A model generated the notes under the pieces. The model searched no databases. It worked only from the letters and a program-made list of their open reading frames with translations, and had not been told where the DNA came from. This document shows, piece after piece, positions 3,124-6,757 of a DNA stretch of 16,350 nucleotides. Origin of the DNA: a virus; IMG/VR virus record IMGVR_UViG_3300029911_000461; one strand, written 5' to 3'. A program made the position numbers and the translations under genes. Numbering within the stretch: position 1 is the first letter of the stretch; each line of letters starts with the position of its first letter.

Positions 3124-5532
3124 ATGAAACTAGGAACCGCAGGTAGTGCAATGGAAGTTGGTGGGGCATTAACCCGCCCCAGAGCATTCTCGTTCAACAA
3201 CAGTGCTTTGGCTTTCAAGCTCTTTTCGTCGGGCATCTACAATAGCAAGATTGAAGCTATCCTCCGCGAATTGGCTTGCAACGCCAGGGACGCTCATGTC
3301 GCTGCTGGCAAAGCCGACACACCTTTCGAGATTCACCTGCCTACCGCTTTCGACCCGACCTTCCGCCTTAATGACTTCGGCACTGGCCTGAAGTACATCG
3401 AGGGGGGCTGCAAACAGTGCCATGGTGTTGGTCTTGTAGAGACCCAGCACGGTGATACCCCCTGCCCCGACTGCGACGGCACTGGCGACTATGATGCCGT
3501 CATTAGCCTGTACTGCATCTACTTCGCCAGCGACAAGAACGACTCCAATGAGTTCATCGGTGCCATGGGCATCGGCTCCAAGAGCCCCTTCTGCTATGAC
3601 GAAAAGGGCGGCGGATTCTCTATCACCAACCGCTACGAGGGTGTCACCCGCATCTATCAGGCAGCGGTACACAATGGCTTCCCCACGGTCGTCCTTCAGA
3701 GCAAGGAGGATACCCCGGACTCCCCCAATGGGGTGGAAATTTCCCTCCCGGTAAAGATTGGTGACATCTGGGAGTTTGAGAACAAGGCACGTAGTGTGTT
3801 CGAGTTCTTCTCCCCGTTGCCGATTTTCAACAAAGAAATTTCGATAAACAAACAGATTTACACCATCAGAACCGAGAAGTGGGGTCTGCGTGACAACACC
3901 GTCAGCACCATCAGCGGTCTCCGGGCGATTCAGGGCATCGTGCCCTACGATGTGGGCGACATCGACATCAGCCGCATGAATACCCACCAGCGGCGTATCA
4001 GCGAGATGGAGTTGGATATCTTCCTCCCGATTGGCGACTTGGAAGTTACCGCTTCCCGCGAGTTCATTCAGTTGGACGAACGTACTGTCGGCAACATCCT
4101 GAAGGCTCTAGACGGGGTTCATGAGGGGATGTTGGAGGAAATCAAGAAGAAGATTGACCAGTGCGCTGCTGTCTGGGAAGCACGGCTCCAGATTTACGAC
4201 CTGACTTCGCGAGGCGGAAGCCTCGGCAAGATTGTCAACGATGCCTACAACAACGGTCTACTCTTGGGCAACTACAGCCACTTCACCATGAGCGATGAGA
4301 TGGCCGTGGTCAACAAATCCGACTATGAGGGCATTCAGCTCACTCAGTACAGCTACAATTTTCGGGCTGAGAAGAGAGCCAAGAAGGAATCACTGTTCTC
4401 CTTCAACGCCGCGTCTGTCAAAAACATGCGTGACCGCATCGCAGAAGACCCGACATGCCGCAAGAACTACGATGTACGGGTGGAAGTCGAGCCCAAGGTG
4501 GCCTTCGTCATCAATGACCTGAAGGTCTCTGCGGATAAGTACATTGGCTACTTCCTCCAGTGCGCGGTTGACCGTGGCGGCAAGACGTTGGTGTACTGCG
4601 TCAATCGTCAGAACAAGTCAGTGGACATGAGCACGGTGATGTCGCAGGGGCTCACCATGATGGAGAAGCTTGGCAATCCGCCTGTCACCCTCGCTTCCGA
4701 GCTGAAGGCACGCTATGGCGAATTTGTGGACACTCCGCGAGAGAAGGGAGTAGCCATCCCCCGCCAACGCCGCAACGTCTCGGTACTGGTGAACGAAGTG
4801 CCCCACCCCCGCCGTGGCAGCGCGGGCTGGGCGAAGGCTTGGGACAAGGCTGACAACGATGTCATCGACCTCCCCGGCATGAAGTATTACGTCATTACGG
4901 ATGGCAGTGGCTCCGGCCACGAGTCCACGGGGTTCTACAAAGCCCGGGAGTTCGTGAGGTTTGTCAATTCGGTTCGCGAGTCGAACCTTCTGGATGTTCC
5001 GGTCTACGGTCTGAAGGCTAACTCGAAGCTGATTGAAGGTGCTGATTGGAAGCCCTACATGCCAGCGGTCTGGGCGGCTGTCAAGAAGCACATGACCCCG
5101 GCTCGTGAACAGCGCATGACCATGGTGGATTGCATTGGCAACTTCTCTACCAGTTGGGATTTCGTGTTCGATTACATGACCGAGCACCCCATGGACGCAG
5201 AGAGCCCGGTACAGCAGTTCGTAGTCAAATTGAATAAGGCCAAGGAGAGCCGCACTAAGGCGGAAGGCACTGCGTTGCAGAGCGTACTTCAGGTAGCCGC
5301 CGCCCGTAATAAGTACACGATGCCGCAGCGAGTGGTTATCGACTTCGGGAAGAAGTGGGATGAAGTAAAAGAATTCTACCCGATGATGAAATATACTGGC
5401 CGTTCTAGCTGGATGGCTGGTACAATAGAGGAAGCGGTGGTAGTAACCAACTACTTCAAGCTGGAAGATGCGAATCGTGAAGCACAGTCCAGCATTAACG
5501 ATAACATCAAGGAGATGACCGCATATGTCTAA
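3124..5532 (+). CDS. GHKL-superfamily (HSP90/MORC-like) ATPase, ~802 aa, with a DnaJ-type zinc-ribbon insertion
   Basis: Bergerat-fold motifs in order. N-box ILRELACNARDAH (cf. HSP90 FLRELISNASDAL). FEIHLPTAFDPTFRLNDFGTGL (cf. ELHINLIP..RTLTIVDTGIGM, G1 box DxGxG). G2 box IGAMGIGSKSPF (cf. IGQFGVGFYSAF). Between G1 and G2: CKQCHGVG...CPDCDGTG, two CxxCxGxG repeats. ORF track begins at TTG 3106; ATG 3124 with SD GGAGAGAAG is the better start. Confidence 0.85.
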   Translation: MKLGTAGSAMEVGGALTRPRAFSFNNSALAFKLFSSGIYNSKIEAILRELACNARDAHVAAGKADTPFEIHLPTAFDPTFRLNDFGTGLKYIEGGCKQCHGVGLVETQHGDTPCPDCDGTGDYDAVISLYCIYFASDKNDSNEFIGAMGIGSKSPFCYDEKGGGFSITNRYEGVTRIYQAAVHNGFPTVVLQSKEDTPDSPNGVEISLPVKIGDIWEFENKARSVFEFFSPLPIFNKEISINKQIYTIRTEKWGLRDNTVSTISGLRAIQGIVPYDVGDIDISRMNTHQRRISEMELDIFLPIGDLEVTASREFIQLDERTVGNILKALDGVHEGMLEEIKKKIDQCAAVWEARLQIYDLTSRGGSLGKIVNDAYNNGLLLGNYSHFTMSDEMAVVNKSDYEGIQLTQYSYNFRAEKRAKKESLFSFNAASVKNMRDRIAEDPTCRKNYDVRVEVEPKVAFVINDLKVSADKYIGYFLQCAVDRGGKTLVYCVNRQNKSVDMSTVMSQGLTMMEKLGNPPVTLASELKARYGEFVDTPREKGVAIPRQRRNVSVLVNEVPHPRRGSAGWAKAWDKADNDVIDLPGMKYYVITDGSGSGHESTGFYKAREFVRFVNSVRESNLLDVPVYGLKANSKLIEGADWKPYMPAVWAAVKKHMTPAREQRMTMVDCIGNFSTSWDFVFDYMTEHPMDAESPVQQFVVKLNKAKESRTKAEGTALQSVLQVAAARNKYTMPQRVVIDFGKKWDEVKEFYPMMKYTGRSSWMAGTIEEAVVVTNYFKLEDANREAQSSINDNIKEMTAYV

Positions 5533-6757
5533 CCTACAGGCAGCAGTACCCTACATCATGACGCCCGATTTCGTATCGGTAATCGTCAGAGGACGCTCGT
5601 TCCAGTTGGTTCCCAGCCACCCGACATTCAAGCAGGTGGTCGCTGCCCTGAAGGCAAAGGCGTGGGCGAAGATTCCGAAACTGGTCTCGCTGGCGGAGCA
5701 GATTGCCAACCAAAGCCACGGCCACGTCAAGATTGAAAGGGGTCTGGTGACATACAAAGGCCGCGAAGTCAACTCGACTCTGACCAAGCGGATGCTTGAA
5801 CTCATCGACCACGGTCAGCCTGTGGCTTCGCTGCTGAAGTTCATGGACAACCTGTACAAGAACCCGCAGCCGGAAGCTATCTCTGAGTTCTACGAGTGGC
5901 TGATGGATAACGAGTTGCCGATCTATGACGACGGTACCTTCGCGGCGTATAAGTACGTCCGTGACGACTACACGGATACCCACACGGGTACCGTACTGAA
6001 CACACCCGGCGAAATCATCATCACTTCCCGCAACCTGGTGGACGCCAACTGGCGGACGCAATGCGCCTCAGGCTACCACGTGTGCTCGAAGAAGTATGGC
6101 ACGTATGGTTCGAAGTGCATGGAGGTGAAAATTCACCCGCGTGATGTCCTCTCGGCCAACGGTGGCAAGATGCGTGTCACCCGCTACGAAGTCATGAGAG
6201 AACTTGGTAACAAGGACGAAATCGAGTTCACGGCTGAGGGCTACGCTGAGTTGGAGGGTAAGGGCGTGCTGGCTATTAACAAGGAACGTCGCGACCTGAT
6301 TAAGGCTTTGACCTCGCTCCCGGCTGTAAAGCGTCTGGTGCGTAACAAGAAGCTGAACCCCAAGTCATTCCGTAAGGCATCACTGGTTCGTTTGCAGAGT
6401 TGGCTCACGAAGTTCGGCGAGACGGTTCCGGTGGAACAGTCCAAGCTGTTCGAGAACCCGCTTCGCCCCGCACGTGTGGCGGCTAAGCTGACCACTTCGC
6501 AGGTGGCAAAGGCCATGGACGTGTCCACGGCTGAGGCATACAACCTCGAACGCAAGAAAAACCCCACACAGGACGAGATTGACTCGTATCTCGAAGGAAT
6601 CATCGCTCTGACTAAGGCTGCCGGGGTTGCTTACCCAACACCTGCGTCAGCAGTCCCGGAGGAAGATGAGCGCGTCGATCTGGGCGAGCCCTCCGACGAG
6701 GAAGATGAGTACGAGGAAGATGAGGACTGTGACGAGGAAGACGACGGGGGTTACTAA
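5525..6757 (+). CDS. Hypothetical protein, 410 aa, with an extremely acidic C-terminal tail (EEDEYEEDEDCDEEDDGGY)
   Basis: ATG 5525 overlaps the stop of the GHKL gene (ATGTCTAA), implying translational coupling. AAGGAG lies 10 nt upstream. Long ORF followed by a strong terminator. Confidence 0.8.
   Translation: MSNLQAAVPYIMTPDFVSVIVRGRSFQLVPSHPTFKQVVAALKAKAWAKIPKLVSLAEQIANQSHGHVKIERGLVTYKGREVNSTLTKRMLELIDHGQPVASLLKFMDNLYKNPQPEAISEFYEWLMDNELPIYDDGTFAAYKYVRDDYTDTHTGTVLNTPGEIIITSRNLVDANWRTQCASGYHVCSKKYGTYGSKCMEVKIHPRDVLSANGGKMRVTRYEVMRELGNKDEIEFTAEGYAELEGKGVLAINKERRDLIKALTSLPAVKRLVRNKKLNPKSFRKASLVRLQSWLTKFGETVPVEQSKLFENPLRPARVAAKLTTSQVAKAMDVSTAEAYNLERKKNPTQDEIDSYLEGIIALTKAAGVAYPTPASAVPEEDERVDLGEPSDEEDEYEEDEDCDEEDDGGY

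Follow-up and report, generated by a model that had tools for sequence, protein, structure and literature searches.

Are the two overlapping genes at positions 3,124-6,757 of the IMG/VR virus record IMGVR_UViG_3300029911_000461 a defence-type ATPase module that strayed into a phage, or do they belong to a known phage family? The window, i.e. the whole stretch of DNA that was analysed, comprises 16,350 nt. From motifs, the original prediction described the first product (802 aa) as an HSP90/MORC-like GHKL ATPase with an inserted DnaJ-type zinc ribbon and the second (410 aa) as its translationally coupled, acidic-tailed partner. Homology identifies the pair as a divergent copy of the classical rII locus (rIIA/rIIB) of phage T4. 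The complete reading, a divergent rIIA/rIIB counter-defence pair in which rIIA is an Hsp90-like GHKL ATPase with a zinc-ribbon lid, is given a probability of roughly 85%.

The overlapping genes correspond to rIIA and rIIB

The profile PHROG 612 (RIIA) matches the 802-aa protein with an E-value of 1.1e-98 (residues 1-764 against positions 1-708 of 725) and PHROG 609 (RIIB) matches the first 230 residues of the 410-aa protein (E 2.3e-56). BLASTP against T4 (NC_000866) aligns rIIA within its N-terminal 349 aa (residues 12-349, 31% identity, E 5e-35) and residues 16-227 of rIIB with the 221-aa core of the T4 protein (residues 87-307, 33%, E 2e-43). The Pfam family PF26926 (Phage_T4_rIIB) is on record for an identical 410-aa product and for all 49 homologues; the local Pfam copy gave no match for this protein. 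Relatives of rIIA were found by tblastn in 2,796 of 50,697 deposited phage records, every one below 60% identity, and among the 40 matches listed they overlap rIIA or genes that are unannotated or hypothetical. An exhaustive phmmer search of 1.84 billion representatives with rIIA returned 12,650 sequences at E<=1e-3 and 2,884 at E<=1e-30. No PADLOC defence-system model matches rIIA, rIIB or the Ku homologue encoded downstream, and no NCBIfam model matches rIIA or rIIB. Thus, the matches to rII families together with the lack of matches to defence and NCBIfam models identify the pair as a divergent rII locus, and a stray defence-type GHKL module was rejected on the same grounds.

The motifs, the zinc-type repeats, the gene overlap and the acidic tail are all present as originally described. 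Of their interpretation, the Hsp90-like GHKL character, the zinc insert and a possible anti-defence role stand, but the rII identity had been missed. The statement that such modules are typical of defence systems and not of phage cores was too strong.

The best start of rIIA is the ATG at 3124, as homologues begin with MKL and have their G1 box at residue 83-84; the JGI gene call (793 aa) starts nine codons later. The two genes adjoin each other in 78 of 80 IMG/VR loci. The PHROG 609 profile (1,055 positions) covers both families, with positions 87-306 matching rIIA residues 119-340 and positions 816-1047 matching rIIB residues 7-230, which implies, at the level of the profile, fused rIIA-rIIB proteins in some phages. 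A reversed order, rIIB upstream of rIIA, is seen at 4552-8052 of LR756511.1 (L009), a 595-kb uncultured phage.

As in T4, rIIA is directly followed by rIIB, the GHKL motifs are the same and neither protein has a transmembrane segment. The T4 locus differs in several respects. Its genes are 11 nt apart, whereas those of the window overlap by 8 nt. The ATP lid of the window rIIA is extended by a zinc-ribbon insert of 32 aa at a point at which T4 rIIA is free of cysteine, and the C-terminal 450 aa of the window protein cannot be aligned to T4 by BLASTP. T4 rIIB has 86 additional residues N-terminal to the core, forming a helix-turn-helix (HTH), whereas the additional region of the window protein is C-terminal and consists of linker, HTH and tail. 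Among deposited records, only that of the Xanthomonas jumbo phage XacN1 covers 80% or more of rIIA. In rIIB of XacN1, too, the core precedes an HTH at the C-terminus, so this arrangement is already known in a deposited phage. XacN1 differs by its low identity (24%), the absence of a lid insert (G1-G2 spacing 30) and of an acidic tail, and an RNA ligase gene downstream of rII in place of Ku.

rIIA is predicted to be a GHL-type ATPase nearest to Hsp90

All residues of the ATP-binding motifs are invariant in an alignment of 118 homologues (Table 1); the N-box context reads RELACNARDA. In the transducer/middle-like domain S311 is nearly invariant, R312 and E313 are conserved, and this loop directly precedes a long helix (residues 319-345). 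The AlphaFold2 (AF2) model of rIIA has a mean confidence (pLDDT) of 91.6 and contains a Bergerat fold. The best 36 Foldseek matches of this model are all Hsp90-family chains, with E-values down to 1e-14; topoisomerases match with the ATPase module only and rank below them. A phmmer search of the PDB sequences with rIIA or rIIB gave no meaningful match. The rIIA family profile, searched against 177,635 PDB sequences, retrieved only Hsp90-family chains (TRAP1, E 5.8e-8; HtpG, E 6e-3) and no MutL, GyrB or MORC chain. The alignment spans the N-terminal strand, N-box, G1 and G2, i.e. the signature of an Hsp90-type N-domain. On the basis of the structural and profile matches, rIIA is assigned as a GHL-type ATPase (GHKL plus transducer/middle-like domain) nearest to Hsp90.

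The predicted HSP90-like Bergerat ATPase is thus borne out by the invariant motifs, the Foldseek search and the profile search. The result that had been named as speaking against it, a topoisomerase-type best match with a Toprim domain, did not appear: Hsp90-family chains rank first, and Pfam and NCBIfam detect no Toprim in rIIA. A topoisomerase subunit (GyrB/ParE/gp39) was rejected for these reasons.

The relationship to Hsp90 is remote. Identity to TRAP1, GRP94 and HtpG is 11-16%, the lid of rIIA is short and bears a zinc ribbon, and there is no MEEVD tail. Furthermore, the C-terminal half of rIIA is not demonstrably equivalent to the Hsp90 middle and C-terminal domains (Foldseek r.m.s. deviation ~19 Å over the full length). 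From the GHL clamps MutL, MORC and type II topoisomerase rIIA differs in that no Toprim, MutL C-terminal endonuclease, CW or coiled-coil domain is detected and in that the family profile gives no sequence match to them. A search for phage rIIA and Hsp90 found no paper in the searchable literature that links the two, only papers on Fc-gamma-RIIA.

A predicted zinc ribbon in the ATP lid

In the majority of rIIA proteins 30 residues separate G1 from G2. In 28 of the 120 closest homologues an insert with two CxxC pairs follows directly after G1, in the form GGCxxCxGxG, a loop of 6-45 aa and CxxCxG(T/S)G(D/N)YD. The four cysteines are invariant in these 28 proteins, the overall identity of which is only 35-43%. 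Among the best 150 representatives at 50% identity, 16 have the zinc-type insert. In the window protein the conserved pairs C96/C99 and C114/C117 flank a β-hairpin, as in zinc ribbons generally, and the model is well defined in this region (pLDDT 92-95, residues 91-120). The insert is therefore predicted to be a zinc-binding ribbon.

The description as a DnaJ-type ribbon holds for the motif, CxxCxGxG occurring twice between G1 and G2 as in the DnaJ cysteine-rich domain and Anti-TRAP. It does not hold for the domain. DnaJ has four repeats and two zinc centres, whereas the two repeats of rIIA would suffice for one zinc site and are located in a GHKL lid, not in a J-protein. Since the matches to Pfam DnaJ_CXXCXGXG (PF00684) and Anti-TRAP are sub-threshold (17.5-18.9 bits, cutoffs 32-32.7), the insert is classified by its sequence as a single DnaJ-like zinc knuckle pair.

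Other insertions use the same site of the lid. Short inserts (8-13 aa) occur in six homologues, and 13-15 carry a cysteine-free one of ~40 aa; T4 rIIA has its own cysteine-free insert. The distant representative P0261 carries a CxxC...CxxC insert that is placed differently. At least two unrelated cysteine-free inserts and one probably independent CxxC insert use this site, which makes the lid an insertion hot spot. The variety of inserts at one position points to a functional interface.

In a rough neighbour-joining tree (insert columns omitted, no branch support) zinc-type sequences fall into at least three groups, with a minimum of six changes. Their neighbours P0048, P0083 and P0075 appear degenerate or free of the insert. 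On this unsupported tree the insert was rejected as the mark of one clean clade, and the tree is taken to show only that its distribution is patchy. The zinc-ribbon version is found in no deposited phage; the alignment extends through the insert only for Aeromonas phage phiA8-29, whose protein is devoid of the CxxC pairs. The zinc-type insert is likewise absent from all 80 IMG/VR loci, and no paper combining GHKL, zinc ribbon and ATP lid was found in the literature searched.

Domain organization of rIIB

The AF2 model of rIIB (pLDDT 86.8) and an alignment of 48 sequences divide the protein into four parts, a core, a basic helical linker, a predicted HTH and an acidic tail (Table 1). For the core neither a fold search nor a profile search of PDB sequences gave a significant match among solved structures. 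The HTH matches HipB, HigA2 and C.Esp1396I in Foldseek (probability ~0.98) and is also supported by the profile search of PDB sequences; Pfam HTH_31/HTH_3 matches are weak in the window protein and above threshold in the homologues P0133 and P0156.

The C-terminal part comprises a conserved (V/I)(S/T)YPxP motif and the acidic tail. Of 49 close homologues 16 have such a tail, frequently with Y, F or W as the last residue. The window protein ends in EEDEYEEDEDCDEEDDGGY, with GGY as its last residues. The rIIB of LR756511.1 has 26 D/E among its last 30 residues, next to an rIIA without the zinc insert. In other rIIB clades (IMG/VR loci L029-L091) the C-termini bear different recurrent motifs, e.g. 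...WPFAKK / WPNPK or ...QKKAxLKIVKAGTDEEV. The C-terminus of rIIB thus seems to be a module that differs from clade to clade.

Co-variation of zinc insert and acidic tail was considered and rejected because of mismatched pairs. Zinc-positive rIIA proteins occur with tail-less rIIB (P0082/P0133, P0028/P0137), and tailed rIIB proteins occur with rIIA lacking the insert (P0058/P0163, P0025/P0165, L009, L013, L022).

Table 1. Features of the rII locus and of its surroundings in the window.
Feature	Position	Strand	Details
Promoter-like element upstream of rIIA, CAATAGCCAAAAA ... CCCGGTATACTGT	3069..3103	+	sigma-70-like TAGCCA-18-TATACT at 3072-3101
rIIA homologue, 802 aa from ATG	3124..5532	+	Hsp90-like GHKL ATPase (predicted), transducer-like domain, family-specific C-terminal half
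GHKL N-box E49-D56 ELACNARD	3268..3291	+	catalytic Glu, Mg-binding Asn; E49, N53, D56 invariant, 118 sequences
G1 box D84FGTG88	3373..3387	+	D84, G86, G88 invariant
Predicted zinc-ribbon insert: C96KQCHGVG, beta-hairpin (strands 104-107, 110-113), C114PDCDGTG	3409..3486	+	between G1 and G2
G2 box G146AMGIGSKS154	3559..3585	+	G146, G149, G151, S152, K153, S154 invariant
Transducer/middle-like second domain, ~residues 160-345	3601..4158	+	has S311-R312-E313 loop
rIIA part beyond the transducer/middle-like domain	4159..5529	+	
Translational coupling region	5509..5532	+	AAGGAG 5509-5514, rIIB ATG 5525-5527, rIIA TAA 5530-5532
rIIB homologue, 410 aa	5525..6757	+	PHROG 609, BLASTP to T4 rIIB, PF26926
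rIIB core domain, residues 1-228	5525..6208	+	C180, G183, H185 invariant, C187 nearly so
Conserved basic helical linker, residues 229-300	6209..6424	+	net charge +7
Xre/Cro-type helix-turn-helix, residues 313-363	6461..6613	+	model pLDDT 94-98
Disordered acidic tail, residues 366-410	6620..6754	+	21 D/E, 1 K/R, net charge -20, pLDDT ~50
Promoter-like element, second copy, upstream of Ku	7182..7213	+	TAGACA-18-TATACT
Ku homologue, 328 aa	7236..8222	+	Pfam Ku E 1.7e-20; TIGR02772 134.5 bits, under cutoff 150
Promoter-like element upstream of ORF 12967	12917-12948	+	same motif class

A proposed role in counter-defence

Divergent rII modules with less than 40% identity among them all counter lambda RexAB and are dispensable without it (PMC11879866). 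The requirement was shown experimentally only for T4, MM02, EdH4, SUSP1 and N4 (PMC11879866), and transposon sequencing of T4 agrees with respect to rII and RexAB (10.1101/2025.11.20.689424). Additionally, T6 rIIB alone proved toxic when expressed in E. coli and sufficed to set off a bacterial gasdermin/CARD system (PMC10312443).

By analogy, the window pair would be a conditionally required counter-defence module against Rex-type abortive infection (membrane depolarisation) that a prophage or host system triggers. Like other GHL ATPases, rIIA may act together with rIIB as a dimerising clamp that is driven by ATP and whose lid closes over the nucleotide. The zinc ribbon would form a rigid, zinc-stabilised protrusion on the lid whose position follows the nucleotide state; most likely it would serve as a nucleotide-dependent surface for dimerisation or partner docking. 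The acidic tail of rIIB may be a flexible element that docks on a partner or is auto-inhibitory; folded back on the basic linker and the HTH, it could act there as a competitor of DNA.

Some points weigh against this view. Pfam finds no HATPase_c domain in rIIA, either in the native sequence or with the insert deleted in silico, so the GHKL assignment rests on motifs, homologues and predicted structure. The Pfam miss itself is a limit of sensitivity and no evidence against a Bergerat fold; for HATPase_c_3 the homologue P0078 passes the cutoff of 25 with a score of 28.5, and T4 rIIA scores 22.1. Zinc binding is at the stage of a prediction. The zinc insert and the acidic tail vary independently and therefore need not act jointly. 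Finally, the molecular mechanism of rII is to our knowledge unsolved even in T4, and the clamp and docking steps are therefore built on analogy with Hsp90, MutL and MORC.

Expression of the pair and regulation by rIIB

The genes share 8 nt (ATGTCTAA at 5525-5532), and an AAGGAG precedes the rIIB start, in agreement with the translational coupling originally proposed. In the relatives L006-L008 the genes likewise overlap, by 8-11 nt, and the GGAGAC ribosome-binding site is again internal. A promoter-like motif, TAG(A/C)CAAA-N13-14-CCCGGTATACTGT, lies 15-25 nt before the start codons of rIIA, Ku and the open reading frame (ORF) at 12967; GGTATACT occurs three times, compared with 0.15 expected occurrences. 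The relatives L006-L008 have a -10-like CCGGTATACT box upstream of rIIA and Ku, in several cases with a TGTGGCTAAA box further upstream. Judging from the sequence, rIIA and rIIB form one co-transcribed, translationally coupled unit behind one promoter-like element and would therefore be made together. Ku, preceded by an element of its own, counts as another unit, with a promoter of the same class.

An exact direct repeat of CAATAGCCAAAAA is located upstream of rIIA (3044-3056 and 3069-3081, + strand, 25 nt apart), and a copy with two mismatches is found at 2083. The repeat upstream of rIIA may serve as an operator or belong to the promoter itself.

Such an operator would suit the view that rIIB is chiefly a transcription factor that tunes phage genes, with rIIA as its ATP-dependent regulator and only an indirect effect on defence. 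Iyer et al. reportedly proposed a transcription-factor role for rIIB in 2021, and an HTH is found in rIIB of XacN1 (C-terminal), of the window and of T4 (N-terminal). Furthermore, rIIB is listed as a specific transcription factor (PMC7824862). However, the conserved part of the protein is the core, the HTH shifting in position and type between clades, and the toxicity of T6 rIIB and the defence it triggers on its own indicate a direct cellular effect (PMC10312443). The transcription-factor explanation is therefore unlikely.

Source phage, neighbouring genes and Ku

The window contains a long run of genes on the + strand. A search for near-identical DNA among deposited phages gave no match, so the source phage is not one of them; the same genes are present on metagenome contigs from JGI, the longest of which has 36 kb. 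Relatives with ~40% protein identity are located on contigs of 88-310 kb, and the contigs of remoter homologues reach 894 kb. The source is therefore a large uncultured phage and probably belongs to the jumbo phages. The order of a 487-aa ORF, rIIA, rIIB, Ku, an R2K ATP-grasp gene, a PTH2-like gene and a gene for a Major Vault Protein (MVP)-like product is wholly or partly kept in relatives.

Upstream of the pair, a 230-aa ORF (2357-3049, +) contains a UvrB/UvrC UVR motif (E 3e-7); its counterpart on the 36-kb JGI contig also matches Helicase_C and UvrB. The R2K-clade ATP-grasp protein (8563-9471, +; PF14243, E 6e-18) and a small ORF (9570-9998, +) with a weak match to PTH2 (peptidyl-tRNA hydrolase) in identical JGI contigs are kept downstream of Ku in relatives. 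An 819-aa protein (10129-12588, +) contains Major Vault Protein domains (Pfam MVP_shoulder, E 3.5e-26; Vault_3, E 1e-9). Its gene is conserved in L003-L005, L007 and L008, and among deposited phages the protein matches only LR756500/501/503 (huge uncultured phages of 462-735 kb), at ~40% identity over the full length. A link of this gene to rII was rejected, as in LR756500 and LR756501 the first 45-48 kb, where it lies, contain neither rII nor Ku. Vault-like shell proteins of huge phages may merit separate attention.

The only matches of the Ku homologue among deposited phages are Ku proteins of mycobacteriophages (~27% identity). In the loci examined, Ku follows rIIB only in this jumbo-phage clade. 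Ku is thus a syntenic neighbour, and a tie to rII, suggested by clade-specific synteny and the shared promoter class, is doubtful.

If such a tie existed, rIIA, rIIB and Ku could form one module that handles the ends of phage DNA or replication intermediates, for example by protecting or masking structures that abortive-infection sensors detect or by aiding end joining or circularisation. In the window, Ku is the direct downstream neighbour of rIIB; it has the same place in relatives with 33-43% identity, whether these carry the zinc insert or not (L003-L008, L013-L015, L018, L022, L023), and shares the conserved promoter-like motif with rIIA. A predicted DNA-binding HTH in rIIB and the action of the GHL relatives MutL, MORC and topoisomerase II on DNA are consistent with this proposal, and T4 rII mutations suppress DNA ligase defects. 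On the other hand, Ku has its own promoter-like element and is not translationally coupled, and a variable gene is located between rIIB and Ku (a 106-aa ORF in the window, a sigma/GerE-like gene in L007). The other loci examined have no Ku within 6 kb of rII, and none is annotated beside rII in T4, XacN1 or phiA8-29. Gene order is broadly collinear in the phage clade, which makes synteny weak evidence. A common DNA-end module is thus quite unlikely. Equally a long shot is the more specific proposal that rII of this huge-phage clade is specialised for DNA-end or replication-intermediate biology, with an Hsp90-like rIIA clamp that offers its nucleotide-gated zinc-ribbon lid for docking, an Xre-type HTH of rIIB autoregulated by the acidic tail and a co-regulated Ku that hides or processes Rex-sensed DNA. 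The rIIB tail, which ends in an aromatic residue, may then resemble that of a single-stranded DNA-binding protein.

A function in defence instead of counter-defence would be conceivable, because GHKL/MORC-type ATPases occur in bacterial defence systems and jumbo phages carry exclusion genes. That the pair is itself a phage-borne defence or superinfection exclusion system built on an Hsp90/MORC-like ATPase is nevertheless highly improbable, as the PADLOC search was negative, the homologues are rII proteins of thousands of lytic phages, Pfam and NCBIfam detect no nuclease or other effector domain, and experiments show that the phage needs rII to overcome defence (PMC11879866).

Implications for the rII family

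The rII pair described here is not a new system. Its unusual features are an undescribed ATP-lid insert in rIIA and, in rIIB, a C-terminal HTH with an acidic tail. What had been flagged from motifs as a defence-like GHKL ATPase turned out to be rIIA/rIIB, a useful calibration. The rII genes are among the most famous loci in genetics. Among GHKL ATPases rIIA is closest to Hsp90 by sequence profile and predicted structure, which points to concrete experiments, and its lid carries a conserved predicted zinc ribbon in ~11-23% of the closest homologues and in no deposited phage record. If the clade's rII proteins were indeed specialised for DNA ends, this would provide the first mechanistic handle on what rII proteins bind.

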